A stretch of DNA of 64,000 nucleotides from Amoebophrya sp. A120. Its lineage: Eukaryota; Protista; Dinoflagellata. The DNA lies in the NCBI GenBank assembly GCA_905178155.1, contig CAJINV010000004.1:9462625-9526624 (forward strand), read 5' to 3'. The translations under genes and the position numbers were made by a program. Shown here one piece after another: positions 4,301-59,300 of this stretch (position 1 is the first letter of the stretch; every line of letters begins with the position of its first letter). The notes under the pieces were generated by a model. That model ran no database searches. It was not told the origin of the DNA and saw only the letters and a program-made list of their open reading frames with translations.

Positions 4301-6576
4301 TTCGCCGGCAACCCTGGCACCATCCGCCCCAGCGTTCCGCAGATAGAGGCCAGCCTCGAGGCTAGCGACCGCGCGGGCTCTGCGTTGCACAAGCAAGAGA
4401 GTGTGTTGCACAAAGACGTGAACTTCATCGAATGGCACGGGGCTCCGGAAGTTTTTTCTCAGCTGACTACTTTTCACGCGACAGCGAGGCTTAATGAAGA
4501 ACACGCGGCGGCAGAACTCCGCTACGCACGTTTTCGGCAGCTGGTCACAGGGTTGCTGGCGGGCCACACGACCCTGTCCGAGAACGACCAGAGCTTTCTC
4601 CTCGAGTTCATCAAGCCATCTGACCAGACCCCCCCTACGGAGGTTGGGAAAAATGACGAGGGGGCCGAAGAGGAAAGAACGCTCTACCAAGTACTAGAAG
4701 ACCGCGAGGCGCAGACCGCAGCCACGGGCTTTCACCAGCTCCACCAGCACGAAAGCGCAAACAGGGCCTCCGAAGGAGATGATGGTGGAGCAGGCCCCAC
4801 CATGGTCACGACCAGGGAGAGCAGTGCCGGCAAGCTGGACGACCTCGTGGAAGATGATCGAGAGCAGACAGAGGACACGAACCCTCGCCCCCGCGCAGGA
4901 CGCAGCGCGCCAGTAACAACTGCGTCGCGAAGTAGTAGGGCAGCAGGGCCGGAGGACGGTTGGAAGGACCTCCGCAGAACGCTGGGTGGAGGAGAGGCGG
5001 CTAATTGGTCTCTGCGTAAAAAAGTCCTCGAGGATGCGGCGTCGCACTGGGACGTTTCGTTTGTCAAGCTTTCCGCAAGCAACCTCTCTGAGGCGTCCGC
5101 GCCCGAATTGTTTGACTTCGTCGCCCATCCGGCGCAGGAAGATCGCGAACAAAACAGTGGAGGAAATAACACCAGGCAAAAAACACTGCCAGCGCTAGCG
5201 GCACTGCCGTCTAACTATGGGGGGCAGGAAGCTGGGCGTGCTGTCGGTGACCTGGTGCAGGATGGCCACTCGCAGCTACTTTTTGAGGCCTCGCTTCTTC
5301 AGTGGCTAGACATCAGCACCAACATCATGGAGCGTTTTTTGGTTAAGAATGACCCACGGACGATTATTCCGGCCCCGCTTCCGGCGCTTGGATGGGAAAA
5401 TTTTACGCGCGGCGGCCATCGCCGTGGCCGCCCCGGGCTCGATGCTCCCGGCAGTGGAAGGCACAGCGGGGTCGTGTCTGCGCTGAATATTACGGACGAG
5501 TTGGAAATCAAGCCGGCTCGCCACGGGTTTTACTTTGATGGCTGGCCGGTCATGGCTGAAGAGCATTTCCAATTTATCCTGGGTAAAAACGTCGCCACCC
5601 CATAGTCAAGTTGGTAAATCTGCTAGACAAATCTCCAAGTTTTGGGAGTCGTGCATGACAAGTTTACATCTGTAGTGTAGTGCTGTTTAGCAAGGACAGC
5701 CGCATCACAAAGACGCCTGCTCATCCTGTTTACAGCATTACAAATCCCAAAACACGACTACAGATTCCTCTCTTGCGGATGTGCATTACAGATTTTTCTG
5801 TGGATGCAAGTCTGCATGACAACTATGGGACAATGGGGGGGCAAAGTGTAGTGTCGCATTTTGTTTAGCATGACAACTACGGGATGGGGACGTTTTTAAA
5901 TAGGATACAACTCGTGGAATGGCTTGGGCGAAGTGGTACACAAATCCAGGACAGCCACTGGCCCGTATCAAATGTAAAAGTGTCTGGGCCTGGAAGAATG
6001 CAACTTGTCATGCTAAATCTGAAGCATGCAAAAATCTGTGTTGCATGATTACCAAAAGTCGCCCAGTTTTGGCCAAGTCGGGAGGGAGTTTCTCACAGAA
6101 TCTGTCATGCTAGGTCCTGCATTCCAGGCTTCGTGGGTCATGGAAAAGCTGCATGACAAATCGCGCATTCTTCCAGACCCAGACACTTTTACATTTGATA
6201 GCCCAGCCTTCAAAACTACACGAAAGCCTCTCAGCAGATTCTGAAGGAGGTCCTGGCCCGACTCGTGAACCGCGCCCGAAGCTTGGCGGCTGTGGGGCTG
6301 GTTCAACAGGAGGACGCGGGGGACCCAGGTCAACGAGAGGAACCTAGCGCGAGGAGCCCAAGCACCTTTACGCCCCAGAAGATTCCAGCCAAGGCCCCGC
6401 TCCTATTCGCTCAGGAGATCCAGATGTGGCACAGAATGCGCAAATTACTTCGCACTAAACGTGAGAACGCGAGATGGCAGCAGAAGCAGCAGCGGAACTT
6501 TTCACGCGATTACGCCGACTGGAATGATCACAGAACGGGTTTGGAGTTCGCGGACTGGTTTACTTCTGATGAATGA
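1365..6576 (+). CDS. Large hypothetical protein, 5' end upstream of the window; exons ~1365-1691, 2076-2390, 3317-5574, 5913-5965, 6206-6576
   Basis: ORFs 1458, 2133, 3308 and 6265 join in frame after removing introners 1692, 5575 and 5966. The 2391-3316 GT-AG join is less certain. No domain recognised. Confidence 0.65.
1692..2070. mobile_element. Family B introner carrying a nested 109-bp insertion
   Basis: TIR tatg..ttctcaaacgttac / gcaacgcttaagaacgccata; TSD cggcg/cggca; colinear with 26183-26421. Confidence 0.85.
2396..3300. mobile_element. Degenerate TIR element forming a ~0.9-kb intron
   Basis: tatacagaagggtgaatttgcagtgaattt pairs with aaattcactacaaattcaccacttctc; right end and TSD not clean. 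Confidence 0.5.
5575..5907. mobile_element. Family D introner (333 bp)
   Basis: TIR tatcct..taaaaacgtc / gacgtttttaaataggata; TSD caatt/caact; homologous to 51658. Confidence 0.85.
5966..6200. mobile_element. Family A introner (235 bp)
   Basis: TIR tatcaaatgtaaaagtgtctggg.ctggaag; TSD gcccg/gccca; frame restored. Confidence 0.9.
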
Positions 6577-7348: not shown

Positions 7349-10300
7349 ATGTCTTACCAAGGACCACCCGGTGCCAGCAGTAGCCACGACAAGCCAGCTT
7401 TGCGGGCACCATCTACATCCTCAGCAAGCGCTATTAAAAACAAGCCCGCGGCCCCACTCCTTCCAAAGCGGACATTACCGAAAATGAGGCCGCAAAGCAG
7501 ACCGACCAGCAGTTCCGGTGGTCTGCCACCACAGCCTGCACATCAACGAGCTCCCGAAAGTACGGCGGGCGATACGGACCACACGCCACGCTCGCACAAG
7601 GAAAAGAAAATCAAAGCTGCGGGGAAGGGGTCAAGACCAGGGACGCCGGTTTCATCGAGAAGTCCCCCGCGCGCAGTTACCTTTGCAGAAGTGGTTCAAG
7701 TTGTGTCGGAAAAAAATAAAAACTATCCCCCGGTTGCGGCGAATAAAAATGGCGCTTCTTCTATAATGGGGGGTTCATCTCCTGTAGAAGCTTTTGCTAC
7801 AACTAATCCAACAAGAAGCTCAAGAACTACATTGAACGCGCAAGAGCCGTCTACTTCATTGAATCAAAATCGAATTATATCGGCAGAAAATAACTCCTCT
7901 TTGTCGTCCACTGTAGCTGCCAACCTTGCGAAGATGAACAACAAGACAAAGGAACAAGAAAAATCCACCCTCTTGACCCACAGCAGCACAGCCCTTGCCC
8001 CGGTGGTAAAAGTGGCGGATTTTGTCGGGGAGCGATGGCAAGAGATAGAGTCGTTGCTCAAGGATCCAGACGCACCTGTACCGGAGCCGTTGAAGCAGCG
8101 CTTGCGGAGGCGAGCGAGAAGTCACAAGCCTTTCACAATTTTGTCTCGGCAAGCGACGAACCGGGACGCGGGGTTCAGGCCCAGGATTACTAATGCCGCG
8201 ATCAGGGACAGGGTGTTGAGGTCGTTGTTGTTGTTGACGCAGCAGCAGATGCAGCAAGCGCAACCTGGTGTGCGGCCAACATTGCCAATGATCCACGACC
8301 ACGACCCAAATGGCGAGAATTATGAAGCGAAAATAATAAAGTCGGAAGGATCTTCAGATGACCTGGAAGATGTTGATCTCGCGAACTTTCGCTTTTCCAC
8401 CTTGGACCGTATCAACAAGAAGAAACATAAAGTCCTTCCACCACGAGAACAATCAGAAGAGGTGTTGGTGGACCTCCGAACGAAAGAGCCAGAAAATGTT
8501 GAAAAATCCCCAAACGAAGTACTAAAGCCCTTCAAGCTTCTCCGGTGCCACAAGCGCCGCGACGCCGTTTTCTCCCACACACTACAACTGTCAAGAACAT
8601 CAAATCCGGAAAATAAAACTAAATGGCTCGGTCTCGCCACCCATGTATGGCACGCGAAACGATTCCACATGGAAACCGTCTGGGGCTGGCGGCTACCGAA
8701 AAATTCCTGCGAGATTGGCGCCCGCGCTGTTTGGCGCAAATGCAAAAAGCAGGGCTTGGTCCTGCACGACAGGTCTTACGCGAGAGTTTTGAAACTTTCT
8801 GCGGCGTATCAAATGTAAAAATGTCTGGGTCTGGAAGATTGCCAGGCTTGTCATGCACGTTTTGCATGACTCCTGATGTCTGTGATGCATGCCCTAGCAT
8901 GACAGATTTTCATTTTGTGAGGGCTTCCGGATGCCTATACCGCATGACAAATGCTGATCTTTCCGTGTAGCAAAGCTTGGACTCTCACTCTCTTTGCTGC
9001 TCATGCAATACAGATTTTTTTAGAATCTAAAATCAGCATGACTAGTTGAATTCTTCCAGACCCAGACATTTTTACAGTTGATACGGCGGCGAAAAAACCA
9101 ATTGTGGACTTGATGCGGGACGCTTTCGGAATTCAGATGAAACACCTAATGGCGAAAAGATATGCACATAAAACTTGTTTTGCTGCAAGAGCAGCCGCGA
9201 CTTCTAAGGACAGCACTGAGGACATCAAAAATTTGAAAACTACAAGAAGTGGTGCCTCTAGTTCCTCTGCCAACATCTTGAAGCGGCCGAAAGCGGGAGT
9301 AGACGCAAAAAAGTCCACGAAGAAGAAGAAATTGAACAAAGAAACGGAAGGGAACTGGCGAGGCCTCGTGGATCTGAGGCGCGGCCGGATGCAGGCACAT
9401 CAAGAACTACTCTCAGTAGGAGCCGACGAGGAGGGTGGACGAGGCTTTTTACATGAAAGCGACAAGGTGGACATGGACCAGAACCAGCTAATCATGAAGG
9501 ACGTGCCGTTCGTTTGGTTTTCTTCTGACGTCGGAAAGAACAATTCATCAACCGAGCAGGAGACCGCAAGAACCTCCTGCCACGACACTTCGTTCGCAAA
9601 AGTGTTCGGGACGACACGGAACAACTCTTCCTCGAGGACGAGGGAGCCACCTCCACAAGGGGAAGATGCTGTTGTTGAACACGCTCTTTTTCTTTGGATT
9701 CACCCAGCGGCGATGTTCGAAGTCCAACAGATGCTTCAGAACGCAGTTGCATCACGACCTGGTGCTGCACCGAAGAAAACAGCTAGTACAGCAGCAGGAT
9801 CTACTGCAATAATAGAGAACCCACCTGCAGCTGGTGGTCGTGCTGCTCCTGGTCATTCTCCTGCTCGACGACGAGAACAAGAACTACATCAAGTCTCAGT
9901 GACCATTTGCGACCATCTGCACACCTTTGAGTTCTTCGGAAATATGGTGAAGAAAGCGATTTTTCCACCGAAATTCTCGAGGACACCTGCTGACGTAGGA
10001 GAGCTAGTCGCGGCGAATCTACCGTACCGGAGGTTCGACCAGGGGGGAGCTGAAGTGATTGACCAACTGCCGGTGGTCATTGTTGATACCAGCTCTAGAG
10101 CCGTGTCTTCAGTGACAACTTCTACGAGAAGTAAGACTATGACCCCCGCCCCTAGTGTTGAGGACCACGACAGCGCGGCAGTAGATGATGAATTTGCTAA
10201 TATTATATCAAAGCGAGAAGTTGTTGTCAACAACCGTTCATCCCTCCCCTCCTGCCAGCTGATCTTTTTCGAGCCGGACCCGGCGAAGGTGCGGCAATTC

Positions 10301-11673
10301 TTCCTTTACTTCAAAATGGAGTGCCTGGCGGAGGTGATTGGGTTCGAGGACCGACACAGGCTGAGAACAGCCTACCTCCAGCCGGAGTTTCCGTTTGATT
10401 TTCCAGAGACAAGAGCTGGCACCGCGTGGCTGCAGAAGAGAGAAAAGGAAAAAGTGGTGGAGTTTATCAAAAAGCCGAAATCGAAACGGGTGAACTACGC
10501 CAAATTCAAGGTCCACTCCCCCTTCTACGGGTTTTGGCCGGATTACGACTTCGAAGTAGATGCGGTCGTGCAGCCGGGAAGTGGTGAAGCTGCTGCTCCT
10601 GCTGGACACAATTGTAGCAATTGTTACATTCCGCTAGAGCGAGACGTGGACTTTCTTCGCCACTACAACAACCACCGAGGAGATGCAGCTGCGAGAAAGG
10701 TGGCATCAAGCGCGAAAGGGAACAATAGAGACGGCGAGGACCAGGTACAACTGTGTCAACAAACTCTGCCAGAAATCGCCAACCTTCGCACAGTCGTGCA
10801 GAGAGACGGAATTCGCTATCTTCCCGGTAGCTGCAAAAACTTTCCGGCAGAAAAGATCCGCGATGTGGTTGCCTGTCGCGTTATCCCAGTGTCGACCGGA
10901 GTGCCCGAACCCTGCACCCATCTTTATGTGATGACGAAAAATGCCGGAGCCGCGCCGGGATTGGACTCTGGAGCAACTGCTGATCAAGCGGCAGGAGCTC
11001 AGGTGCCGATGGACGTCGAGGAGAACGAAAATTATAACGACAGCGCAAGAGGTCCAGCGGCAGTCTCTCATTTTACAAACGGCACAATAAGACGTCGAGG
11101 TAGCGACCAACATCACAAAAACTTCCGCCTCTGCGGCTTCGTTCTTTCCGGTGGTTATTCACATGCCTTTATCAAAAGGAAAAATCCCCCCTCCCCATAT
11201 CAAAACGAGGTCTCTGATGCAGGATTTGCGTACACAAATAAGATTTGTCTTGCTGGAGAGGAATGCAGCCCCATACTAAGCCGAAGTAGAGAGGTTCTGG
11301 CCTAGGCGTCTAGCATGAGAAACGTCCGTGCTGTAGGCCCATCAGCATCACAAACCGCCGGCACAATGCTGCGGAGCTTGTGGAGTTGCCTTCTTGCAAG
11401 ACAGACGTGATCTGAGGTCTCAAATCAGCAACACAAATTTCCGGAAACATACCTTTTCGATATGGGGAGGGGGGATTTTTCCTCCTAATAGCCTTCGGAC
11501 GGGCGATCGGGTTGGGCTTCGTCGAGACAGAGGCTTACTCGGGCTACCTGTCATCTAACCAAGTCGACACTTTCTTGTACATGCGAAATACTACGTCGAA
11601 CTGTTACCACAGGGTTTACGTATCAGCTGATACAGATTTGGGACAGAGAACCAGTAGGAAGGATGTTGGGTAG
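7349..11673 (+). CDS. POP1: RNase P/MRP subunit POP1; exons 7349-8806, 9089-11169, 11496-11673 (~1238 aa)
   Basis: POP1 motif THVWHAKRFHM..WGWRLP and LHDRSY; POPLD-like FPFDFPET.AG..KPKSKRVNY..SPF; C-terminal GFVLSGGYSHAFGRAIGLG appears only after introner removal. Confidence 0.9.
8807..9083. mobile_element. Family A introner (277 bp)
   Basis: Family A TIRs; perfect TSD cggcg; joins KLSAA|AKKPIVDLM. Confidence 0.92.
11170..11490. mobile_element. Family C introner (321 bp)
   Basis: TIR ..ggaaaaatcccccctccccatatc; perfect TSD gcctt. Confidence 0.92.
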
Positions 11674-12226: not shown

Positions 12227-15200
12227 ATGCAGGCTACTTCCAGTGCAATCCGCAGCCCGAACTCGTCCGGGCAGCTGCGGCCGCTGCAAATAGGCAGCTC
12301 CGCCGCAACAAGCAGCACGGCACCACGAGGAGTGCTGCCGCCAGGACCAGTAGCAGAACAACTTCCCGCAGGTGGTGCACCGCCAGCCACAACTATGTCC
12401 TCAGGTGGAGCCACAACTATGTCCTCAGGTGTAACATTTTCCCAGGCCGAGCAAGAGTCCGCGATTGCGGCCCGGCTGGACGCCTTGATTGCGGAGCGGG
12501 TGGAAGCGGAGGTCTCCGCGTACGACGAGTATCTTATGCTGCACTTGACAAACCGGTTTAAGGAAAACGAAGAGAAAATTCTCACACTAGTTGAGGACAA
12601 AGTCATGCGGCAACTGGAGGCGTCGGTCGCCCTCGCAGGTGCAGCTGCACATGATCAAGAAAACGCGAAGACCATCACAGCTGAAGACAGCAAATCAGAA
12701 AATATTAAAGCGTCTCGTACGACCGGAACTACGAGAGATCGGTTTTCCATCGTCGACGCGGACGAAGAAAGTGACGAGGCCGAAATGTTATTAAACAGTA
12801 GGCCGAATAATTCGAGGAAAGTAGACACCGCAACGTCTCCTTTACTGGCGGGTGCACCAGGTGACACCAGTGGTTCATCTCCACCATCGTCCACCTACGA
12901 AGCCGCAAGGATTATGCAGGACATGCGGATTTCCGCCATGGAGCGGCAGATCGAGCAGAAATTGCTGAACGAAGAGAACTACGAACCGCAGAAGTATCGT
13001 ACTCGTATAAATTATGCATGACAAGTTCCCTCAGCATGAGAAATAAAATTTGTAATGAGGATTTACCCTGAGAAAAAAATTTGTAATGCATGACTGCAAT
13101 ACGAGTGCGATGCTTTTGCACAGCATAAGAACGTTTTCGAACAGAAGATCACCGCCGAGGTGAGGAGTTTGAAGCAAACGATCGAAAGTATCAACTGCAA
13201 AAGTGTCGTACTCGTCGTAATTGCAATACTGCATGACAAATCTTCTGTTTTACCTGAATCAGCATGACAAATTCCACTCTTTCTTCTGGGCAAATTTGTA
13301 TTGCAATCTATACTAGTAAGTTACTTTTGCAATGCATGGAATGCCATCACAAGCAATTTCAGGAAAGCAGGAAAAAACAGGAGGTCGAGTTGCTGGAGTT
13401 TCAGAAGCGGATGAAGGCCGAGATGGAGATGAAAGGTATTTAAAAACATAAAAAACGAGGATATCCTTATCCATCGATATTCACATATATTAGAGGACTG
13501 CGTTCTTTAAAGATTCATCGTGTACAGTTTTTTCTACCGAAGTTGCTTTTTCACTTTGGTGTATAGTTTCACGCCTTTTAACTGGATCTGATCCTGCATG
13601 ATCCTGCTGGCGATGTATGGAAAACAATGAAAGTAAAAGTTATTTTCATTCATAACAGCCACGCCGATGCCGGACAAGAAACTTTCCGAGATGACATCCA
13701 CAGCTCCTACAACATCCGCGGAGCACGAGAAACTGCAAGCGAAAATTGCGGAGCTCGAAAGCCAGCTTTCCCGAGTCGTCGAAGGAGTCGATGACCGCTT
13801 GCAAGTATGCATTGCAAATATGTCTGGGTCTGGAAACTTGTGATGCAAGGAAGCGAATAGTGAAAGCACTGTAATGCGATCCCCAGCATGACAAGATTTG
13901 CCGTGGTTCTGAGTTGCGTACTTACACCGCATGAGAAACTGCGTTTTTGCATGACAGGCAAGAGGAGCTCTTCGCGGCCACGCAATACAGAGTTCAGAGC
14001 TATGCCAGACTAGCATGACAAATCTTGCAATCTCCCAGACCCAGACACTTTTGCACTTGATAGCAAGATCTAGCGGACGCCTTGGTCAAGCGGGCGAACG
14101 ACAATCAAAAACAAGTAAACGACAAGATCTACAGTTTGACGCAGGCACAAGTATTGACCCGCAGCGTCCTCCGGAAGGAGAACGATGCCAAGCTGCGGAT
14201 GAATCCGCAGGAGGTGGATGCGAAAGTCCGGAAAATTTTGAAAAAGCTCCTCGCCCAGACCTACGTAAAGACGGAAGAGACGACAAGGGAGTCTGCTGCG
14301 ATTGCGGATCATGCGGCGGAGGCGTTCTCGGACGGAGTACTGGAGACTACTACCTTTGAGCGCGCTACAGTGAAGGACGAGGAAGATGACTCAAGAACTG
14401 CGGGAGCAGCTGACGGCGAACTAACAGCACAGCAGAGCAAGAAGCGCGTTCCCAAGGCAGAAGGCGAGGCGCTCGCGGCTGGCAGTGCCGCGGCGCGGGC
14501 ACGATTGTCTGATTTGGAGTCGCGGGCGATGCAGATGCAGCTGCTATCCGCGATGACGGGCGGGAGCAGCAGTGAAGAACTAGAAGGAGCGACAAATAAA
14601 GTGTTCAACAACAGGGCTATCCTCGGCACGATGAAAGGGCAGCAGGAAGACTTTGAGCGGCAGCCCGAGACGAAGAATTCTACAGCAACCGATGGCACGA
14701 TGGCAGGGCAAACGGACGACTTTCACCGTGAGCCGATGACGAAAGTCTCAGCAAGTACAGTGTTGATGGGTGTACTTAAGTAGGTTCATCGTGTAGAAGT
14801 TGGGTTTAAGTAGTACTCAATTCTTCACAAACGATGAAATACTTCTGCTTTTTTTGTTGTTCCGTAGAGTACCGTCGTGAATAATCTTATACGCGATGGT
14901 ATCGCGATGCTTCAATTGCGTAAGCGGCAACTGCAACAGTTAGCCGCATATCATACCATCGTGGACAATATTATCCAGGATGTTGTTGCTGTCAGAAAGG
15001 AGTGCGATTTAAACATCCGTCATCGCAGCATCGTGCAAAACGTTTTGCGCGAGGGTATGCGTTGTGCTTTTATATACGGGCGCTGCTATGCATCAAGGGT
15101 CCATCACACGATACCACCCTGCAAAATATCTTTCAGCAGGTTATGATGCACGTTCCAGAATGATCGCAATTGTCGTATAATCGTGCAGGACATTCTCCAC

Positions 15201-18200
15201 ACCGCTCTTCTGGTTCTGGTGGTGAAGGTTAAGATTAAGCTTCACGTGCAATTTGTTTCTGGTAGAATAACAACAACAAGTGAAAGAACGACCAATCAAA
15301 TTAACCTCGCAGGTTCCGCCCAGCCACAACAAGCAACCAATGCTGACCGTGTCATCGTGCAGCCGCTCGGAGGTTCTTTCGAGCAGCAGCAACCTGCGAA
15401 TATTAACGTGGAAGATCCTCTCGACGTCTTTAACCGCGACTTGATCCAACGCCCGAAATCGATGGCCGCCGAGGCCATGCGGCGCTTCGGGCAGTTTGAC
15501 TCGACGAGCACCGAGGGTGGTGGAAGCAGCGATAGCATTCGACAGTCCTCCGCCGTAGTCCAGGAAGTATATGCATTGCAAATATGTCTGGGTCTCCTGG
15601 AAGAGTGTAACTTATCATGCTACATCTGGATCGTGAAAAAATTCGTGTTGCATGATTACCAAAAGAGGTCCACTTTTGAACATGTTTAGAGGCAGTTTCT
15701 CATGCAGGAAAGGCATGATAGAGATCTCACAGAACCTGTCATGCTAGGCCGTGCATGCCAGACCGCGGGGGTCATGGAAAACCTGCATGACAAACCTGGC
15801 ACTCTTCCAGACCCAGACATTTTTGCAATCCAAAAAGTAGTGCACACGACGATTGCGATCATCGAACCGGTGATTAGGAAGGAACTCGAAATATGAAATG
15901 CAAAAGCATCGTACTAAGTCTAAGTAGTAATCGCATTACAAATTCGCTCAGCATTACAAATGGAATCTCTCATGCTGATCTGCCTTGAGAAAGAGATTTG
16001 TCATACATAATTGCGATTACTACGAGTACAATAGTTCTGCAATGCATACGAAAGACAGGAGAGCAAATTGAGGAGGACGCTGCAGCGAACGCAGAACGAA
16101 GAGGACCTCCAACTTGGAGGAAAAACACCAGACAGTGGATATGAACAAAAGAAGTTTTCCTTCTTCTTACGCGCAAGTTCCCCGCCACCGATCTCTCTCA
16201 CTAGCGAGTTGAAGGCACAGAGGGAGAAAAACAAACTTCTGCGGTCAAAGACAACGCAGCAGTTTCTAGCGACGTATCGAAACCCGAATCCAGTGGTGGT
16301 CCCTTTTGCAGCTGCTTTTGGAGGTGAAAATAAGAATGGCGTGGGACGAGGAGGAGTTGACCAAGATGATACTCCTGGCACCAGCTCAACATCGCAGCAG
16401 AGTAGGGCGGGCACCGACGTGGTTCTGAATTACGCAAAGTCTTCTTCGTCTACCATCGCAGGCAACAGGCTAACGAGTCCGAGAGGGGGCACAACGAGTC
16501 CGAGAGGCACGACGAGTCCGAGAGGCACAACAAGCCCCAGAGGCACCAGTTCAACTCCTCGAGGGACCACCACGCGAGGGGGTGCAGCTTCAGCCTCAGC
16601 TAGTGCAAGTGCTACAACGGTTACAGCCGCTGCGGATAATAACAACTCCGCCGACCGCAGTATGCAGAGCTTTATGGAAGATAAACACGACCACACGAAG
16701 CTCCGCACCACGGCAAAATCGCAGCTGATGGCCGACGCGATCATCGACGCGTATGCTGCATTAGTTCCCACCGAACAGTTCCGTACAACTTTGGAGGATA
16801 TGCATTGCAAAAGTATCGTACTCGTACTAATTGCATTTATGCATTACAAATCTTTTTGTTAAGGCAAATCCGCATTACAAATTTAATTTGTAATGCTAAG
16901 CCAATTTGTAATGCAATTTATACTAGTACGACTACGATGCTTTTGCATTGCATAGAGGATGTGCAAAATAGAAACATGACGGAAGAAGAAGGAGTATCGT
17001 AAAGAAAAATCCCCCCTCCTCATATTGAAAACGCATCCGTCTGAAAATTTGTGATGCACATTTGTGACCTCAAATCTTGTCTGTCTTGCAAGAAGGCAAG
17101 TCCAGAGAGCCTCCTGCATTTTGCAGGCGGTTTGCGATGCTGTTGGGCTTAGAGCATGCACGTTTGTCATGCTAGGCGCCCACGTCAAAACCTCTCCACC
17201 GAGGCTTGACATATGCCTGCAGTCCTCTACTGCAAGACAGATCTTCTGATTTGTGTACGGAAATCCAGCATCAGAAACTTCGTTTCGATATGGGGAGGGG
17301 GGATTTTTCCTCTTGATAAGGAGTGAAGATCTGGCAGGAAGAGGCGCAGAACGTGTTAGCCCGTCAGTCCGTCCGCGAGGTTTTTCTTACCGAAAGACCA
17401 CTATCAAAATGAAAAATCCCCCCTCCCCATTATCAAAATGGAAGTCTGTAATGCGGGATTTGTATACACAAATCATTTTGTCATGCTAAGAGGGAAAAGA
17501 AAAAGATGCGGACTGTAGTGCTGAATGGCGTGGAACAGCCTTGCAGCTACAGCATGACAGGAGGCAGCTGGAAGTGGGAAACAGCATGACAAACTGCCTG
17601 CAAAAGAGGCCGCGACTGCGCCTCTTGGCCTTCTAGCAATACAAGGCGACTTGCGTACTCAAATACAACATCACAAATTTAGTTTTCGATATGGGGCAGG
17701 GGGATTTTTGTTTTTCCTTTTGATAACCAAAAATCCAAGCCTACGTCGACGCGGAAATCGCCCGGGCGCAGGAAGAGGTCGCGGAGGCCGTGCAGACGGC
17801 GATCCTGCAGGAAAGAGCAGTCACGGAGGGAATGCTGGACAAAATGACGCAAGACTTTGGGAGGACGAAAAGCACCAATATTAGAGACAATAGCTCTACT
17901 CTTGCGCAGGAAGATACGCAGCAGCTGCAAATGGAAATAGCAAATAGGACCCGCTTGTTGTCCTCTTCGCAGGCGTCACCACCGGGCGAGGATGTAGTTC
18001 ATGTGGGGGCAAGAGCAGCGGCCGGCGCTTCATCTTCATTTAGGTCCGCTCTACCACCAGTGGAAAATTTGCCAGATCTTGCGAAAAGGTCGCTTGTTCC
18101 GCAGAACTCTCGCACGGGCACGACTGAGTTTGACAATAAGTTCAATGAAATCGCCGCGAAAGTCGGTGATCTGCAAGCGAAGTTTCGGATATGCAGTGCA

Positions 18201-44125: not shown

Positions 44126-44821
44126 ATGTCCTTCTCGCTCGCCCCGCATCCCATCGGGATCAAGTATTGGACCAACATCTGGGCCGAAACGATATCCAGG
44201 AAAAAACTACACCCATCCCCATCCACTATTTGCATGACAAATAGTGATTTTTTTGCATGTTTTGCATGACAAATTGGATGGGGATAGGTGTTTTTTCCTG
44301 GATAAACGAAAGACAAACCCTTCACCGAGTGCCTATCCCGGTTGACAGTTTTTTTGGTTTTTCCTGACTCTTCCTAATCTGTAAAAGCAAATTCTAGCTG
44401 CATTTTATGCATGATGAATAAAGCAGGAACTGCACGACCTGCAGTGGCATAGCAAGGAATTTGACCACCTACTGGTGTTCCATGCATTTTCATTTTGCAA
44501 GAACCGACTCCATACGATTTGCAGGGTGAATCGATGAGTCTTGAAACTGTCAGGAACGAAGCAATCATAGATTTCAACCCGGGATAGCCACACGGCAAAT
44601 TCCAGAACTGGTACCAGAACAAATTTTACAAGTCCTTCGGCCGCTACTACTACCGCCACCGTGCCGGACGGATGGGCGCGTTTGCGCCGTTGGTGGTCGG
44701 CGGGTTGGCCTTCAAATTCGTCTCCGCGTACTACGGCATTCTCCGCGACAATTCCGCCGCCATCGACGCGGCCAAGGCCTACGGACAGGGCGGTTACAAG
44801 TGCAACCCAGTGCCGAAATGA
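44126..44821 (+). CDS. Small membrane protein, probable myzozoan-type mitochondrial ATP synthase subunit f (106 aa); exons 44126-44192, 44310-44333, 44592-44821
   Basis: Spliced product MSFSLAPHPIGIKYWTNIWAETKDKPFTECHGKFQNWYQNKF..AFAPLVVGGLAFKFVSAYYG..AAKAYGQGGYKCNPVPK. The C-terminal AYGQGG..NPVP matches my recollection of apicomplexan subunit f. Absent from the ORF track. Confidence 0.72.
44193..44304. mobile_element. Family I introner (112 bp)
   Basis: TIR tatccaggaaaaaa; perfect TSD aacga. Confidence 0.92.
44334..44586. mobile_element. Family J introner (253 bp)
   Basis: Short TIR tatcccggttga / tcaacccgggata; flanks gtgcc/gccac; frame needs element+5 nt removed. Confidence 0.78.
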
Positions 44822-46083: not shown

Positions 46084-46770
46084 CTGGATTCTGTGGGATA
46101 GGGTGGGGTGTGTGATCAACGCGGTTTTCTTCACGTCCCTATGTTTCAGTATTCGGCTATCCTGTGCAAAAGCGTCCCCACCACCCCAGAGTCAAGTTGG
46201 CAATTCTGCAGGTACAGAAAGCACTAGCACCGTAAGTAGTTTCGGCTGTTGCGAGGCGGGGACGTTTTTACACAGGATATCAGTGGAACCCCCACAGCCT
46301 GCCGCTGGTGAATGATATCAAATGCAAATATGTCTGGGTCTGGAAGAATGCAGATTTTGTATGGTGATTGATGCCTCTAATGCATGATCGAGCAACACAG
46401 ATTTTGAGAGGGCTTCCTAATGCCTATTCCGCATGCGAAATGCCCTCTCTGCGTAACACAAACCGGCGTCCTGTTCTTGCTGGTCATGCAATACAGATTT
46501 TTTTGGAATCCAAAGACAGCATTAGAAGTTGCAATCTTCCAGACCCAGACACTTTTGCAATCCATAAATGAGTCGATGCACCCATCTTCGATAACCTGGG
46601 ACCAAGTTGCGGAATTTTGCGGCCCCGCGTGGGGCGTGGAAATTTCCTTCCTTCTCCCTTTGTTGTTTTGCTGCGGGTCTATTCTCGCAGCGGTGCTCTT
46701 TGCACTGTTTTACACATCCAAGTCCACCTCTAGGCGGAGCAGGGATGCAACAGAAGAGGTCGACCTGTAG
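46084..46770 (+). CDS. 3' exons of a small hydrophobic hypothetical protein (5' part unresolved)
   Basis: ORF 46103 joins through micro-exon 46285-46315 to the end of ORF 46420 after removing two introners; C-terminal transmembrane-like stretch. Confidence 0.5.
46158..46279. mobile_element. Short family D-related introner (122 bp)
   Basis: TIR tatcctgtg.aaaa.cgtcccc / gggacgtttttacacaggata; TSD tcggc/tcagt. Confidence 0.78.
46316..46566. mobile_element. Family A introner (251 bp)
   Basis: Perfect TSD aatga. Confidence 0.9.
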
Positions 46771-48694: not shown

Positions 48695-51600
48695 ATGGGA
48701 GGTGGTGGAGCTCCAGCTCCTGCGCCTTCATCTTCACCTTCCACGAATGAACAGGATGTACTAGTCGTGCCACGACCTGCGCCTGCACCTGGCGCAGAGT
48801 TCGCCGAGAAGCACGAACGCATGCAGGTCCTGGTGGTGGAGGAAACACACGCAAAGGAGCACACGAGAGCGCGCGCGACCGACGTGTGCGAGGAACAAGT
48901 AGAACATCAAGTATCACTATCATCTGCTGTCGCGAGCGACGTTGAGGTCTCGGTGGACGACGTTTTGCGCAAGCGACGCCAGGAGCAAGGGCGATGCTCT
49001 CCCTCCTCCGAGCGCTTCGGATTCCGCTCTGTGTTGAGACACAGCTTATGGGATTCTCCAATGCCGCATTGTGTCTGCTGTTTACTATACATAATTTTGT
49101 CATGCAAGGCTAGCATGCATGAGCACGTTTTGCATACAAATTGAAATTTGTAATGGATCTCCATACTGTTTTTAAGTGTGTCGAGAACTTGCCATCTTTG
49201 GAAGCAGCTTGATAGTGTTGGAAATTTGTTTGAAGAGCAAAAAAAATTTTGCATGACAAACTCATGTAACTATAGCTAGCAATTGCAATGTAATGTTTGA
49301 GACCTCCATACCGCTTTCACAAAACGTTTACCGTCGTCGCCAATTTCTCCAACTCCGTTGATATGCCTTGAAAATTAACCATATCATCCAATTTGTCATA
49401 CAAAACATGGATTGAAGTCGCCTTTCGTCATGCAAAAAGTGGATGGTTAATTTTGATTTTCAGTGCATAGCACAATGCACGTTTCTCCAGAATTGGGCTC
49501 CCACCGTGTTCTTCCCACTTGTCGCCGCTATGATTTGGACCATAATACGGGGGTTAGGGCCGAGAGTGCTCTTTTTCCTCAGTGGATCGTCTGCGGGGCG
49601 GACGTGCGCTCTCACGCCGGCGGCTTTTGATGGTGTCGTGCATTTGCAGACGCAAGGAGAAGTCGAGGCGAATTATGAAGCAGCTGGTGCCATGTTGGAG
49701 GCCATTGGTCCACCGCAGCTCCAGCTTCAAGCAGAAGTAGCGAAAAATATTACTGCAGCAACATCTTCTTCTGGCTCTCCTGGCACAACAGCTGCGTCCT
49801 TTTCGGTGTTTAGCGAGTGTCGCCAGTACAATTGGACGACCACGTCCACGATCACGAACAGCTCATCAACCCAGGTCGTTCAGTTCTTGTGTGGAGCCAG
49901 TTCTATTCCGTCTTTCGGTCAGATTCTTCTCCCGCCACCCCTGTTTTCCGCCTTCTGGGATATTGGAATTGTGTACGGCTTCCACTTGCATTTGCACATG
50001 TTGGGCGCCCGCATCACACACGCTCTTCCGCCCACGGGGGTGCCCGCCGTTTTGTTTTACGGGAGCTCCCTTGTCCTGTGCACGCTCGTCTCGGTCGCGC
50101 TTGGTTTCGCAGATTATGAACTCGTCCTTTCGGGGTGGACGCGGACTTCTGCGATGATCGGATCCGTCGTACTCTTCCTCTCGACCTTTGTTTACGCTGC
50201 GGTCATCGCGTTGCTCAACATCCACAAACGCGAAAGTGATCTGAAAACGACAAGCAAGAGAACGACCACTACACCAAAAGTAAAGATGGAGGCGCTGGTA
50301 CAAATACAATCTGCTATACCTGTATCACCAAGTAAAAATCAGGAAGAACAAGAAGAAGAAGCAAATGAGCAGCGGGTCGTAGGAAAAAATAAAGCGATAT
50401 TCATAGCGTCGACTACGGAACAAGCCGGAGCCCACTCCGACGAAAGAAACAACAGCTATCCGGTTCCGGAGGTTGTTGTCCCGCAAGGCGCGCACAAAAT
50501 AACAGGGTTTGCGAATGCCTTTATCGGCTCACACGGTACCGATAAAACACAAACTGGCAGTGGTGATACAATCGCGAATACAACGGACTCACACAGTTTC
50601 GAAAAGTTTGCGGGGACGAACAATCAAACGGTGAGAAGCGAAGAGGGCGACGCAGGAGTTGTAGTCGCGAGCAAGAATTGTTCTCATTTAGATGTAGAGA
50701 CATCGAAGAACGAGGACACAAAAACGCAAATAAGCGACAAAGAAATGAAGAGCAAGCCGAAACGACGCAACATGTTCGTGACGCCGGCGTTGCGGGGTCT
50801 TTCCGTGTTTGTCATGACTGGTGGACTGACGTTGTGCTTCGGTTCGGTCTTTTTCTTGACGAATTCCATCCTCGTCGAGTTTGTGCTGGATCCGCTTGCG
50901 GCAAATACGGCCATCGCCCTGCCAGTTCGATTGGCGATCGAGCTTGCCATCTCCCTCCTGGTGTTTCTCATCTGGGTCCCCTTGGCGGCGCACTACTGGG
51001 GGAAATCCGTCGCGATTGCGATCTTTGTACCGCTGCCCTACTGGATTTCCGCCGAGGTCTACGAGGAGAGTCAGCAGCCGGGTAGTCATTTTGCCGGCGA
51101 GGGTGATGATGCAAAGCGGGAACGCGAAAAGCAGCGCAAACGCCGCATGAGGGAAACCTTCGAACATATTCCTTGAAAATCAACCATACCCATCCAATTT
51201 GTCACGTAAAACATGAAGGAAGTTCTGTGTTTGTCATGCAGATGCAAAGAAAGAATGGGGATGGTCAATTTTCAGGGAATAGAACAGATTAAGATCGTCT
51301 ACTTCTTTTCGACAGACTTGATTCGCATCACGCTCGGACGGGGTATTTTGATGCGGTACAGTGGGTATTCGGTTTTGCTACTCCTTCTCACCGACTTCGT
51401 CTACCACATGTGGCACTTTGGATTTCGCCAGCGCGAGTCTCTGCTGCTTTTCAGTGTGGTCGCCGCAGCAAAAAATCGCAACGTCCGGCGAATGCAGTCG
51501 ACGCGTTTTCCCGTCTGGTTTCGTGTGATCGACCTGTGGACGCAGTTTCGCAACCGCGCCCCACTCTGGTTCACGATAGGCTGGCATGAGACCTGGGATT

Positions 51601-54600
51601 TCGCGGAAATGCTTAGTATTCGGGAGACCGGGGAAGGGTTGAAGAAAACAACTGACGTATCATATGTAAAAACGTCCCCACACCAGAGTCAAGTTGGGAA
51701 CCTAGGAAGACAAATCCACAAGTTTTGGGAGCCACGCATAAGAAGTTGCAGTCCGTAGTGTAGTGCATGTAAGCAAGGACCACCGCATCACAAATCCATC
51801 TGCTTATCCTGTTTACAGCATTACAAATTCTAGAACTCGATTGGAAATGCCACTCATGGAGATGCGCATCACAAATCTTCCTGTAATCGCAAATCTGCAT
51901 GATAACTATGGGGTGGGAATGGTTTTACTCAGGATATGACGACGATGCGCGGGTCCGGAAGGAAAGAACCGCGAAGACGTACAAGGATCTGACTATATCC
52001 TGTGCAAAAGTATCGTACTCGTAGTAATTGCAATCATGCAATACAAATCTCCCTCTTAAGACAAATCAGCATTACAAATTTCATTTTTCATGCTGAGGAA
52101 ATTTGTAATGCATTTATACCACTGCGATACTTTTGCAATTCATAGACGATGTCTTTCAGCAACGTGCAGGTGATTCTGAAGCGCGTTCCAAACCATGTCT
52201 GGGACGAGATGTTTCCCGATGATCTTTCCATCGGACAGATTACTTCTACCGTCGCCTGCTATCCTAGGGAAAATTTTCACCAGCACGAACTAACATCCTC
52301 TTCTTCAGTTTGTAAATGCAATAGAATCACAATCAGAACCACCAGTGGTTTTACGCGTGCTTATGATGTAATGCTAATGTTAATGTTGTCGTTCTGCATT
52401 ATTACGCATTGATTGAGGTGACGGTGAAGATTTTGTTCAGGATACCAGGGGAAGGAGAAGTACTGAAGAAACTGATCGATCGTCGCGAAGGTCCCACTCT
52501 TCGGGCGCAAGTTTGACGGCCGGAACGCGCAGATCAAACTCGGCGGCGAAGTTGACGAAAACAGGGAGTGACAAGTGGAACGCGAAGGCGGGTCGCGGAG
52601 GTCGACACCATGAAAACTCGCGAAATAAAAAAACACCTGGAGGTGTTGCGCAGATCATAGATGCTGACCTGCGTGCAACGGTCGATCAAAAGCAGGACAT
52701 GTTCCGAGAGACCGTCGATACGCGCGCAACAATGGATTCGCAGTGCGAAATTGTCGATGTGCACGACGAGACCACGCGAGATCGGTTCTCATCGAGGATG
52801 TCGGAGAACAATACGCTCTTGCACTCGCCGGCACGAGTATCAACTGCTCCTTCGGCCGTCTTCTCGTCAACATCTCTGTCACTCACGGAACATCAGAGAA
52901 CGGAGGTTGTTCCCGCTACCGGCAGTGACGCAGCTGCTGCGCAGCTCCGTGGACGGTCGTGCTCCGGAGCAAGTGCGGCGACGGGCTCCAGCAAGCGGTT
53001 ACGGCTTGGACGGTAGTTAGAAATCCCGGCCGCGGATATTGTGCGGATATTATGACTCAAATGGAAAACGTGCGACAGCTTTTCTCTCGTCGCGGCCTGT
53101 GAGTCGAAGTGTTGACGGTGGCAGTAGCTCACCGTCCGAAGATGGTGGTGATCAGTGCGTCAGCTCAGCGAAGCTCCGTGATTGCGTGCAGGAGGAGGTC
53201 GCTCGTAGGTATTTATATTGGAAAATCGGCACGCCGCTATGCGTGTTTGTTTGGTTTCTGCATGGCATGCATTTTGCTACATTTTCGTGATAGTGATGAC
53301 ATGCCTTGAACCAAAAGGCAGAAGGCTTGGCAGGAGCCACGCCACGCAGCGTAGAGGAAGCTACCGCAAAATACATCGAGACGGAAATAGCCAGGCCGCG
53401 GCTGAATGACATCCAGAACGCCTCAGGGTTTAGGTCGGTGCAAGCCCTCCTTCGGCGAAAGAGCCCAAAAGCGCGGGTACTTTTTTGCACGTCAGTAGTG
53501 GGAGCGTATGCTTTCCCTTTTTTTGTAATGCGCCAGACTGCTTGATGATGCCACGTAGATGAAGGGCCCATAAGCATCATGAGCTGACAGAAGCAGTGCA
53601 GCTGGGATTTATCCTTTCTTGCCAAACACCTCGCAGGTCGCCATTGCGCTCGAGCTTGCAGATATCCACTACACCAGAATGATGACGATCAAATTGGCGG
53701 AAAGTGCGCACAAAACGGTGCAAATATGAATTGCAGATACGTCTCTGCCTGGGTGTGGAAATGCAAATATGCGTCGCAAATATGCATTGCAAGTATGCAC
53801 TTTAAATATGCATTGCAAACATGTCTTGCAAATATGCATTGCAAATATGCATTGCAAATATGCCTTGCGAATATGCATTGCAAATATGCATTGCAGATAT
53901 GCAATGTGCTCCGGAGCAAGTGCGGCGACGGGCTCCAGCAAGCGGAGCAGGATTTCCGTGCTCTCATCTACCCCAAATGTTCTCCGGCTCAGCGGTCCCC
54001 ACACATCTACTAGCAGGCCTCCAAGGGCGAAAAGCGCAGACACGTGGGCGCGACGAGCAGGAGCACCTGCGCCAGCAACGGAGCAGACAGCGCGCATCCT
54101 TCCTGAGCACAACGAAGGTGGTGATGCGACTGAAGACGCACGCATGAGGCGTGGTCAAAACAGTGCGCCGGCCGGCTCGGTGGGTCATAGTGCTTCTTTC
54201 TGGAGGTGGAAGCGGCAAAGAAGCGTCGCCCGTCAATTGTCTTCCACCGATGTGCTCCCAGGTAACCCAATCCCGACATCCCGTCTGCCTTCCACATCTT
54301 CTCTGCAGCGCCCGTCGGTTCGCAGTGTTACGAGTCGGCTCAGTTCAGTAGTCCGTGGCGCATCCTCCTTCCGCAGGACCGTGCTTCTGCCCGCGGAGCA
54401 GCACGTGGAGGACGTCTCCGCGTGTGTATTAGCGCACGAGTACGTATATCACACAGAAAAAAGCTAGCAGTGCAAAAGCAAAAAATACATGAAACACCAT
54501 GGTGGCTGCATCGATGAAGATGAGCAACGTTTTTGCATAGCCTATTAGCAATATGCTATGGGCGGCCTCTTCAGGAGACCAGGGACAGACAGTGACAGAT

Positions 54601-55541
54601 ACTTCATATGAGCCCCCCCCGCTAGTTTTTTCTCTACTGGGATAACGTGGACATTTTTCAGGACTTCGTCTGGTTTTACCGCGATACGCTCTTCACGCGC
54701 TACCAGGTGCGCGCCATGGTTCGCATCTTCACTTCCCTGGCCTGGATCTTCATTCCTGCAGTCGCTTTCTTGACCGACATCCGCCACTATCCCGGCTTCT
54801 CTACGGATTTGGTCACTAACGTCGTGTACCCAGTTTCATTTTTCTGCTACGACTATCCTGTGCAAAAGTATCCCACTCGTATTGCAGTCATGCATTACAA
54901 ATCTTTTTCTCAAGAAGGTGAATCAGCAATACAAATTGTATTTCTTTTTCTCATGCTGAGTAATGCATTTATACGCGTGCGATATTTTTGCAATTCATAA
55001 CGACTGCTCCGAGTGGATTACCCTGACTTTTTTTTTCTTTTTCGCCGACGCGGAAGCGAAGCACCGGTTTATATCAAATGCAAAAATGTCTGGGTCTGGA
55101 AGGTTGGAACTTGTGATGCTAACTTTGGACTCTAAAAAAATCTGTATTGCATGACCAGCAAGAGGAGTCTAGTTTGTGCTACGCGGGGAGGGCGTTTGTC
55201 ATGCGGAGTAGGTATCAGGAAGCCCTCTAAAGATATGTGATGCTAGGCCGTGCATTGCAGACATCCTGGTCCATGCAAAACATGCGTGACAAATCTCAGA
55301 ATCTTCCAGACCCAGAAAGTTTTGCATTTGATGGTTTACGTCGCTCTTCAACTCAGCCTTTAAGCAGAAAACCAGCGACCTGCGGCTGGTGTGCATGCTG
55401 CTGGCCGTTTTCTTTGCCGTGCTGTGCTTCGGCACCCGCTGGAACCCGAGGAATCTGCGATTGCTTCGGGCGGATACGGGGATTGCAGATTTATCTTGGG
55501 CAGACGTGCAAAATGTCTGCGCCGAGGCATGGGCGAGGTAA
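48695..55541 (+). CDS. Multi-pass membrane hypothetical protein split by 9 introners and one direct-repeat-bounded insertion
   Basis: ORFs 48533, 49443, 51213, 52149, 52513, 53769 and 54647 chain in frame; several hydrophobic helices; start and stop uncertain. Confidence 0.7.
49047..49310. mobile_element. Divergent family B introner (264 bp)
   Basis: TIR tatgggattctc / gagacctccata; TSD cagct/ccgct. Confidence 0.8.
49362..49469. mobile_element. Family K introner (108 bp)
   Basis: TIR tatgccttgaaaattaacca; TSD decayed (gttga/gcaca) but the +5 rule restores frame. Confidence 0.78.
51167..51281. mobile_element. Family K introner (115 bp)
   Basis: TIR tattcc.tgaaaat; perfect TSD gaaca. Confidence 0.9.
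51658..51936. mobile_element. Family D introner (279 bp)
   Basis: Perfect TSD tgacg. Confidence 0.88.
51996..52144. mobile_element. Family E introner (149 bp)
   Basis: TSD gacta/gacga. Confidence 0.88.
52260..52444. mobile_element. Family L introner (185 bp)
   Basis: TIR tatcct..aaaat.ttcacc; TSD cctgc/ccagg; frame restored. Confidence 0.78.
52999..53905. mobile_element. 907-bp insertion flanked by perfect 40-bp direct repeats of exon sequence
   Basis: gtgctccggagcaagtgcggcgacgggctccagcaagcgg occurs at 52959-52998 and 53906-53945. Confidence 0.8.
53718..53905. repeat. Tandem array of ~13-bp AAATATGCATTGC units
   Basis: Directly visible degenerate tandem copies at the right end of the insertion. 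Confidence 0.88.
54447..54644. mobile_element. Family M introner (198 bp)
   Basis: TIR tatc..agaaaaaa.ctagc; TSD acgta/acgtg. Confidence 0.82.
54854..54999. mobile_element. Family E introner (146 bp)
   Basis: Perfect TSD acgac. Confidence 0.9.
55072..55333. mobile_element. Family A introner (262 bp)
   Basis: Perfect TSD gttta; ends ATG. Confidence 0.9.
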
Positions 55542-56355: not shown

Positions 56356-59300
56356 ATGCAACTACTTCTGCACATTCTAGCATCAACAGCCAACGTCGCA
56401 AACGCCTGGACCGACACGGGACACATGATAGTGGCCAAAATTGCCGCGGACGGGCTGATATGAATTGCAAATGTGTCTGGGTCTGGAAGGTTGCAACTTG
56501 TGATGCAAATTTCACACAACACAAAGATCTGTGATGCATGAACGGCAAATGCGGCCCAAAACTTGGCACCAAAACAGGGAATTTGTTATGCGGATTAGGG
56601 ATGGGGACACCTTCTCAAGACGTGTGATGCTAGGGCCTGCATGCCAGACCTCCCAGATCATGCAAGAGCAGCATGGCAAATATCTGGACCCATCCAGAGC
56701 CAGACATGTTTGCATTTGATAGCTGAAGCCGGAGGAGCTCTCGTTTTTCCACAATTTGACGGACATGCTGTACCACCCCTCGGTGAAATATCCAGGAAAA
56801 AACACCCCTCCCCATCCAAATTGTAGTCATGCGAAACATGCATAAACTCCAGTGTCTGTCATGCAAAAAATGGATGTGGATGGATGTTTTTTCCTGGATA
56901 TGAAAGCAGCGCGCACCGGGGACTTTGTGAAGCCGGTGGACACGCTGTGGGGCGTGGCCAGCTGGAACGATAATATTGACATCGCGTATTTTTACGAGGA
57001 AGTTTTTGATGGTGCCAAAAGTTCTGCATCAACACGTCGGAAACGAAGAAATTTGCGACTCTGCTGTTCTTTCAGCTGCCGTGCCGCATCACTTAACATG
57101 TTGACGCGCGCGCGCCCACGCATTTCTCCATGCAGCACGAGCGCCGTTGGCCCCCTATCTTTCCTGCCTTTGCCGCGCCGCATTGCGCCTTCGCCGCCAC
57201 CGGCATTTTCCGTTTTGTTCAAAATAGCAGGTGATGATGTTTGCATTGACGCCGCCGGCACTGCGATTATTTCAGTCGCTAAGCACAGTCGTTCATCTCC
57301 TCCCCATTTGATGTTTCATCTGTTGCGTATGTCAAAGAAGATGAAGATGAAGAGAACACTGAAGCTGAACGAACAAGAAGATAAAAATCATGATCAACAA
57401 CTCTTATCAGGTTCCACTTTCAGAAAACGTGGCACTTTACCGACACGGTGGTGCGGCTCGACAAGGGCTGTAGATTGATCGGCGACGGACAGAAGATACC
57501 TGCTGCAGGAGGGCCGCATCTTCAGGAGGCTGGGAAGATGATCGCAAACAGGACAACAATCAGCCCGCTGCTGTCAACGTCGTCCACGACTCCCAGGGCC
57601 GCCGCGGTGCACGAACTCAACAAGGGGCACCAGCAGCACGTCGACTCCACGACGCCGAGGGCGGTCGGCAAAAGCGAGACGGGGCTGAGAAGTCTCCTCG
57701 GTGAAAAAGACAAAGAAGAAAATGACAAGCAGATGATGTCGATGAGTACCGACTACGGGGGATCAAACACAAACACCTGCGACAGCACCCACCCGCCCCG
57801 GCCCGACGAGAAGCACCAGGACGTTATCTACGGCCTGACCTCTGCCTACTACGGAGTGACCAGCGAGTATGGGTGTGTCAGGATCGAAAACGTCAAAGTT
57901 GAAATGATTTTTAATAATGCATAAAATGCATGACCCGAGGTACGTGTGTTGCAGAGCAGGCAATGGAGGCCGATTGTAAGCCTGTTTGGGGTTACAGCTC
58001 GAGCTGCTAAAGTAGCATGAGAAAATCGCTCTTCTTTGCCTCAACAGCATTACAAACTGGATTTAGTGACCACCGAAATTTGTCATGCGCCACTTCAAAA
58101 CTGGGTTCCAACTGGCATCCATTTTATGCATGACAAATCATTTGAACTTTGTCGATTTCGATGCTGACAGTTCCATAGCGAGGTGAGCAAGTGGAATGAC
58201 CCGGCCATCAAGAAGTTTCAGCAGGCGTGGTGGATTATGAAATGCAAAAGCATTGTACTAGTATACATTGCATTACAAATTAGCTATAGCTCAGCATTAG
58301 CATTACAAATGAAATTTGTAATGCTGTTTTACCTTTAGGAAAGAGATTTGTCATGCATAAACAGCAATTACTACGAGTGTGATACTTTTGCGGTGCATAT
58401 GGATCCGCATGCTGATCCACTTTCTCGGCGACCTGCACCAGCCCTTGCACGCCGCCGCGGGCTGCAGCGCGCGCCACCCAGAGGGGGACCTATCAAATGT
58501 AAAAATGTCTGGGTCTGGAAGATTCTGACACTTGTCATGCACGTTTTGGATGAGCCCTGATGTCTGTGATGCATGCCCTAGCAGCACAGATTTTTTGAGA
58601 GCTTCTTGATGCCTAAGTTGCATGACAAATGCCCTCTCCGCGTAGCAAGAATCACATTCCCTTTGGTACTCATGCAATACAGATATTTTTGGAATCCAAA
58701 TGCAGCATTACAAGTTGGACTCTTCCAGACCCAGACATTTTTACATTTGATAGGACCGGGGCGGAAACGAATTTGGGATCGAGACGAACATTAAGAATTA
58801 CTTCGAGGGTATGGAATGCAAATATGTCTGGGTCTGGAAAGTTGTGATGCTAAAAGTGAATGAGATTTCCACTGCAATACGGAGCCAAGCATGACAAATT
58901 TTTTGGCTGCCATGTCTTACGTATTCCGCGTGGCAAACTGCGTTTTTGCATGAAAGGTAAGACGGCTTTTTCGTGTCTACGCATCACAGATTCTTGAGTC
59001 GTGTCAGACTAGCATGACGAGTCTCGCAATCCCCCAGACCCAGACATATTTGCAATGCATAGAGGGAAGGGCGACCTTCGTCTCGGAGCTGCACTTGCTC
59101 TGGGACTTAGCGGGGGGCAGCTACGCCGCGGGACCGAATTGGCCGCTGAACGCCACGGGAGAGGCCTTCGTGGCGGAGGAGGCCAAGGTACTAGTACTTA
59201 CTTCGGTTCCGTTTCGCGTTGGTATGTTTCTCTCTTCGCAGCGCCGTGATGCAGCCGAGCATTTCGAATTCGTAATAAAATCGTTGCACCCCCGGTCCTC

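Follow-up and report, generated by a model that had tools for sequence, protein, structure and literature searches.

Amoebophrya sp. A120 contains introners, introns with non-canonical ends that were sorted into 1,954 families (PMC7789003, Farhat et al. 2021). The accessible passages of that paper describe them as having an inverted repeat of TAT, seven variable bases and at least three A, flanked by direct repeats of 3–5 nt, and report that U1 snRNA was undetected in Amoebophrya genomes. They also argue against a general mobilisation by transposases, none having been found in A120. Amoebophrya has approximately 30,000 repeated non-canonical introns. Here we analysed a stretch of 64,000 nucleotides of A120 (contig CAJINV010000004.1, positions 9,462,625 to 9,526,624 of the forward strand), referred to as the window, that holds 43 short elements of 108–379 bp. 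Their TAT-N7-AAA ends, direct repeats and removal without GT-AG borders all match the published introners, and judged by these sequence features they are very likely the same. The introners themselves are thus already published; the new finding is the geometry of an internal motif. Most window elements carry the motif GCAWBACAR as pairs of sites that point in the same direction and lie about three helical turns apart. We consider it rather probable that these pairs are putative double-stranded DNA sites of one shared mobilising protein, probably a transposase. Neither the motif nor its spacing was found in the text and supplement passages of PMC7789003, in the parts of the supplements of PMC12130899 and PMC9860276 that were covered, or in literature searches.

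Results

The strict motif GCAT[GTC]ACAA matches the window 89 times (47 plus, 42 minus), compared to 1.7–5.5 matches expected from Markov models of order 1–4. Inside the elements lie 85 of these matches; 39 of the 43 elements have at least one, and all ten families are represented (family letters are those of this analysis and differ from earlier lettering). A preliminary description of this DNA had reported the motif as recurring in both orientations in most families, often just inside the terminal inverted repeats (TIRs), and as rare in exons. All of this holds, although the range given for it (5575 to 59061) was too narrow, the motif also being present at 1313, 1736 and 2020. A matrix trained on the elements (consensus GCAWBACAR(A/G)T, core GCAWBACAR) finds 188 sites in 9,601 bp of element sequence (19.6/kb) and 28 in the 54,399 bp outside (0.51/kb). 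RNA-supported exons (4,975 bp) contain no such site, and four GT-AG introns (724 bp) contain two. The outermost site is mostly found immediately inward of the TIR, at a distance of 35–60 bp from the tip, and the others are spread throughout the interior. The repeated CH, MT and VM words that had been pointed out in open reading frames (ORFs) directly result from translating the motif and its complement. Single sites in 34141–34296 and 35437–35626 (GT-AG introns) and in 45580–45720 (other non-coding sequence) are possibly decayed elements. In 16 long metagenome loci the background amounts to 1.6 sites/kb, uncalled copies included. Viral contigs gave no match to the family A TIR, and 120 viral loci with the pair pattern, none of them element-like, were taken as chance.

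Sites of the same direction 30–33 bp apart form 50 pairs in 32 of the 43 window elements and in nine of the ten families, whereas the best null window never exceeded 19 pairs over 2,000 permutations (P of 0.0025 at score 9 and 0.011 at score 6 when computed over families). Three turns of B-DNA span about 31.5 bp, and the commonest spacing of 31–32 bp fits this length. A held-out set was obtained from 163 metagenome loci (541 kb unique) fetched with a family A pattern; 355 elements were detected in them and 349 kept, six longer than 450 bp being put aside. With the matrix unchanged, 347 of the 349 elements have a site and 269 have a pair, with direct spacings of 31, 32 and 33 bp occurring 210, 111 and 52 times. 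With one copy taken per family, a pair is present in 12.1 of 24 families compared to 2.4 in the null (maximum 8 in 3,000), and families absent from the window have it in 7 of 15 cases. No allelic copies were found among the metagenome loci. The spacers are 33% identical between families compared to 28% after shuffling (39 unit types); tandem duplication as the origin of the spacing was rejected, as the units are not tandem duplicates. The outermost sites that face outward cluster at 35–40, 46–48 and 55–60 bp from the tip (Rayleigh p = 7e-4, best period 10 bp, 24 families that are not fully independent). The smallest family, family G of about 110 bp, consists of two TIRs and one pair.

The element finder ignored the motif and required TAT at one end at least, and five copies were added by similarity. 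At the 86 ends of the window elements, tip positions 1–3 read T, A and T in 84, 85 and 85 cases, and positions 11–14 are A in 74, 74, 80 and 68 cases. A finder anchored in the interior and blind to the tips gave T, A and T in 363, 364 and 354 of 380 family A ends. Nearly all tips thus read TAT-N7-AAA, and only positions 15–30 or so are specific to a family. As the families share their tips and diverge only from about position 15 inward, they belong to one superfamily; the previous impression of unrelated TIRs did not survive, and common ancestry of the families is likely in view of the shared tip sequences and the duplication length. A target duplication of 5 bp matches at four or more positions in 41 of the 43 elements. 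We found no target-site preference, and elements are inserted both ways, all eight larger families being present in both orientations. The TIRs are predicted to pair as a hairpin in 42 of the 43 elements. TIRs, target duplication, shortness and high copy number are all as in miniature inverted-repeat transposable elements; a DNA run covers unique DNA at a depth of about 50, compared to a depth of tens of thousands when the element bins are summed. A tandem array at 53749–53917 repeats a 13-bp unit that is identical to the tip of a TIR variant of family A and also scores as a motif; the tip itself may be a derived motif copy.

Two TAT-tipped elements with duplications of 8 bp instead of 5 bp have no motif sites. 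One of 1,370 bp lies in the window (62091–63460) and one of about 520 bp is nested in a metagenome locus (L018:1537–2349); two plus-strand ORFs of such elements gave no match to Pfam. This class is likely served by another transposase, and the lack of sites in it ties the motif to the 5-bp class.

In 13 subfamily trees, the rate of change of the motif core relative to the remaining interior columns is 0.15 on internal and 0.43 on terminal branches. As motif columns were defined from the consensus, this contrast may be somewhat biased. The inner TIRs behave alike (0.19 and 0.59). A first simulation attributed part of the contrast to an artefact (0.37 versus 0.25); in 12 matched simulations the odds ratio of terminal to internal changes was 1.24 (maximum 1.46) compared to 2.7 observed. 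Conservation on internal and relaxation on terminal branches would be expected of a motif that is required for copying and largely released after insertion. Private motif changes relative to conserved non-motif columns amount to 0.69 in family A and 0.84 in family B.

Strands could be set for 203 of 392 elements; in the window the caller gave plus for 37 of the 43 elements, all of which were taken as plus. Of the sites in these 203 elements, 430 are sense and 461 are antisense (p = 0.31), with equal scores (p = 0.28). RBFOX with its UGCAUG site is an example of a strand-specific intronic splicing enhancer; enrichment and conservation on the transcribed strand, as such an enhancer would show, are not seen here. 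The predicted pairing of motif bases exceeds that of the remaining interior bases (0.75 compared to 0.56), and predicted pairing of motif with motif reaches at least 0.9 in 3 of 42 copies. In family E all sites are on one strand and this pairing is only 0.00–0.06, so the sites are not hairpin arms in general.

Removal was followed in RNA-like contigs, which come from runs guessed as RNA that all belong to one sample of one study. Eight elements are skipped exactly, together with one copy of the duplication and with ends other than GT-AG. Three runs show skips of 214, 270, 329 and 269 nt, and the contigs concerned skip four GT-AG introns as well. A skip of 117 nt was found in one contig and one of 244 nt was seen directly, whereas those of 258 and 240 nt were inferred from record coordinates. 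At 35074 an imperfect duplication of which the left copy is kept places the 5' cut at TAT or one base before it, in one informative case. Two family D copies, at 25075 and 26183, have opposite orientations and no pair, and both are removed. Excision from DNA as in ciliates was judged unlikely, since the DNA run retains the junctions of element and flank at about 44-fold depth; no exact skip was present in this run among the 15 joints listed of 1,769. Raw RNA reads of run X6, which has the same species label, matched only parts of elements.

The remaining features are described by family, with each site given as the distance of its centre from the left tip, followed by > for the plus and < for the minus strand. 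Family A elements with two pairs are located at 5966–6200 (44</75< and 158>/190>), at 8807–9083 in the POP1 gene (46</78< and 203>/234>), and at 15570–15834 (47</78< and 188>/220>), 35074–35337 (47</78< and 187>/219>; skip of 269 nt, left copy of the duplication kept), 41425–41676 (51>/84> and 177>/208>), 55072–55333 and 56459–56721 (both 44</75< and 185>/217>) and 58491–58752, which has a perfect 30-bp TIR (46</78< and 188>/219>). The copy at 46316–46566 has one pair (177>/208>), those at 13806–14062 (148>/181>/212>) and 58810–59061 (143>/176>/207>) have three sites in a row, and the one at 24766–25018 (46</77</110< and 186>/217>) is missing from an RNA-like contig. At 33695–33959, 270 nt including one duplication are skipped. 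Family B elements have a pair at 12980–13127 (75</106<; left tip TAC), 13189–13338, 16799–16954 and 51996–52144 (all 47>/78>), 15892–16048 (80</111<) and 27732–27887 (50>/81>), and two pairs at 58236–58399 (39>/69> and 85</117<). Other arrangements are found at 18190–18336 (57> and 73<), 19454–19610 (81>, 97< and 115<) and 54854–54999 (43>/77>, which are 34 bp apart, and 99<).

The family C element at 11170–11490 has pairs at 47</80<, 148>/180> and 231>/263>, and the copy at 16995–17318 is reversed relative to it (59</91< and 142</174<). Three 32-bp pairs are present at 17402–17725 and three pairs at 34708–35031, where 329 nt including one duplication are skipped. In family D, the element at 1692–2070 has single sites (49<, 153< and 333>), as does a D-like element at 49047–49310; the copy without a pair at 25075–25309 and the one at 26183–26421, reversed relative to it, are both missing from an RNA-like contig. 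Family E elements at 5575–5907 and 51658–51936 share pairs at 52/83, 132/165 and 213/244, all on the plus strand, to which the former adds a site at 298, whereas an internally deleted copy at 46158–46279 has no motif site and a duplication matching at 3 of 5 positions. The family F element at 33453–33661 (143>/174>) is skipped in three runs with 214 nt including one duplication, and a reversed copy lies at 41818–42026 (36</67<). Family G has a minimal element of 112 bp at 44193–44304, made of two TIRs and the pair 44>/76>, with a skip of 117 nt in one contig of low depth. Its copies at 49362–49469 (36</68<, duplication 2/5), 51167–51281 (37</69<, in-frame stop inside) and 56789–56900 (72<) have no site on the sense strand. 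Single representatives with one pair are those of family H at 27944–28110 (75</107<), family I at 41146–41372 in the DEAD-box helicase gene (136</168<) and family K at 57868–58177 (152>/184>).

The window is gene-dense eukaryotic DNA with long reading frames on the plus strand. Pfam identifies POP1, a DEAD-box helicase, a ubiquitin-like protein and an S1/P1 nuclease, and one protein has its sole named relative in Amoebophrya sp. A25 (37% identity). Taking out 12 elements, each with one duplication, leaves a frame of 4,700 codons at 15147–31886, of which 1,276 codons gave no match to Pfam. A gene with RS and RRM regions at 32900–35780 resembles the splicing factor U2AF65 when its translation is read by eye; its four introners and four GT-AG introns are all gone from the RNA-like contigs. 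Genes at 40–52 kb have little or no RNA cover. A GC-rich stretch at 36250–37800 has none, and four ORFs there are blank in Pfam. The window starts with an 18-bp tandem repeat (positions 1–400). An old TIR element of about 950 bp at 2375–3321 has degenerate tips and, at the right end, a motif pair of 32 bp. On its flanks lies a duplicated sequence of about 45 bp that resembles an exon, and no transposase domain was found in the plus-strand ORFs scanned. Six long candidates for autonomous elements in the loci (about 0.6 Mb covered) were rejected, five being nested insertions and one a false pairing. Of five nested insertions in elements, four (L032:632–1465, L034:10307–10763, L064:571–1051 and L065:3862–4492) are located at a CATG, mostly within the motif, and three have (ATG)n or (ATGA)n tails, which suggests a LINE/SINE-like element (long or short interspersed nuclear element) primed by microhomology.

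Discussion

In the mechanism we propose, a mobilising protein (a transposase or its cofactor) would contact the two sites of a pair with two subunits from the same side of the helix, at a separation of three turns and in phase with the tip, and the assembled complex would cut at TAT and insert with a 5-bp stagger. Inner TIR and spacer could then diverge freely between families provided that tip and pairs persist. The preliminary description had offered a common transposase site or a factor that marks introns for removal. The former is supported indirectly by spacing, phasing, strand symmetry, conservation over copying lineages and the absence of sites from the 8-bp class, whereas the latter is unsupported at the RNA level, given the strand symmetry and three copies in restored reading frames that have no sense site. 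Removal from RNA would rest mainly on the TIR hairpin, which would form in either orientation.

Several observations weigh against a shared mobilising protein that reads the pairs. Family D has no pair in any of nine copies, its single sites lying 46–51 bp apart in alternating direction, yet it has spread. Sites that face inward are unphased (p = 0.75), and the phasing of the outward ones is weaker once pairs are collapsed (p = 0.03). Families are not independent, half of the held-out elements are family A because their loci were fetched with a family A pattern, and the 8-bp control comprises two elements only. A Pfam scan of 29 window ORFs, which for the long window elements covered the plus strand, found no transposase, in line with the passages of PMC7789003 on A120. 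Finally, the motif rate on terminal branches is still below neutral, and private motif changes are rarer in coding-like than in non-coding-like copies with one classifier (odds ratio 0.49, p = 0.015).

The last two points lead to the question of whether the pairs could also be bound by a DNA-binding protein of the host, or a domesticated one, which would mark the element on chromatin and bring in the removal machinery as transcription proceeds, beside or instead of transposition. A mark on DNA would be as blind to orientation as the motif is, the terminal rate of 0.43 and the private changes of 0.69 and 0.84 leave room for a function after insertion, and the lack of a detected U1 snRNA would agree with such a mark. 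Constraint is, however, far stronger on copying lineages than on tips, and the pairless family D copies are still removed. A second classifier showed no effect on the coding contrast (odds ratio 0.78, p = 0.25), and the contrast in the pooled data (0.52 versus 1.22) became smaller and lost its consistency once subfamilies were treated separately. As private changes are nonetheless somewhat rarer in the motif and one classifier was positive, a DNA-level mark that also aids removal is possible, but we regard it as unlikely on balance. A broader version, in which a DNA-binding machine reads a paired and phased code in most of the roughly 2,000 A120 families and was co-opted to flag introns on chromatin for U1-free removal, we put forward as speculation with a slightly smaller chance still. 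If true, it would amount to a transposon-derived, DNA-templated system of intron definition for tens of thousands of non-canonical introns.

It is harder to reconcile the data with a motif that acts in RNA, as an element for a splicing factor or by providing complementary arms through which the intron would fold into a hairpin. The higher predicted pairing of motif bases would speak for it, as would the strong pairing of motif with motif predicted in 3 of 42 copies. But neither the number nor the score of sites differs between strands, the one-sided sites of family E hardly pair at all, and a spacing of 31–32 bp fits B-DNA. In addition, the best scores on the sense strand are 1.5, -1.9 and -4.4 for the family G copies at 49362, 51167 and 56789, and yet their frames are restored by predicted removal. 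An RNA-level splicing signal is thus unlikely, and we would assign it a very small chance. Descent from one ancestor with repeated units, the motif now being without function, would account for the shared tips and duplication length, which imply common descent, and for the small excess of spacer identity. However, sites keep their distance to within 3 bp although the sequence between them is almost random, and the units are not tandem duplicates, so ancestry alone is not a sufficient explanation. Moreover, the rate of change of motif columns along internal branches is 0.15 relative to their neighbours. A mere relic is largely refuted by this and, in our estimate, very improbable.

With the pairs read as sites of a mobilising protein, their sharing between families suggests that most families use one mobiliser. 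The pair provides a concrete 40-bp double-stranded bait and a signature to look for in an autonomous element. Setting the signal for movement, in DNA, apart from the signal for removal, in RNA, should also improve intron annotation.

Among known transposons, hAT elements have 8-bp duplications where 5 bp are found here, although rare hAT groups with a 5-bp duplication exist, and the subterminal repeats in both orientations agree with this group. The transposases of hAT elements combine a BED finger with a hAT catalytic core, for which no candidate protein was found here. Ginger and other integrase-like DDE transposons have TG(T) termini, whereas the window elements end in TAT, and no integrase-like transposase was found among the 29 window ORFs. 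The best lead to an enzyme is the published A120 family 38, whose description in the accessible parts of PMC12130899 (Gozashti et al. 2025) includes TIRs, a 5-bp duplication, TA/TA termini and homology to a Copia-type putative transposase that is integrase-like. Duplication and termini resemble those of the window elements, but family 38 is 808 bp long and has ORFs. Nonconventional introns of euglenids, a different lineage, likewise join non-canonical ends by a TIR hairpin and have duplication-like repeats at their junctions; a shared paired internal motif does not appear in the passages of PMC11282704 that describe them. According to the parts of PMC10368747 considered here, Hermes, a hAT element, has short subterminal sites in both orientations and asymmetric arrangement that are bound by its transposase, and thus resembles the window elements in layout. 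Its sites are 4 bp long and its duplication 8 bp, compared to sites of about 9–11 bp, direct pairs 31–33 bp apart and a 5-bp duplication here. The ends of Tn7-like elements and CRISPR-associated transposons (CAST) have several transposase sites per end, whose spacing is important with a periodicity of about 10 bp, and a set distance from the tip, as outlined in passages of PMC10201428, and these are comparable features. They are bacterial, biochemically tested and have TG termini, in contrast to the TAT-tipped, eukaryotic, non-autonomous elements of the window that are removed as introns. While membership in either group fails on duplication length or termini, Hermes and TnsB sites serve, by analogy, as working models for the paired motif of the A120 introners.

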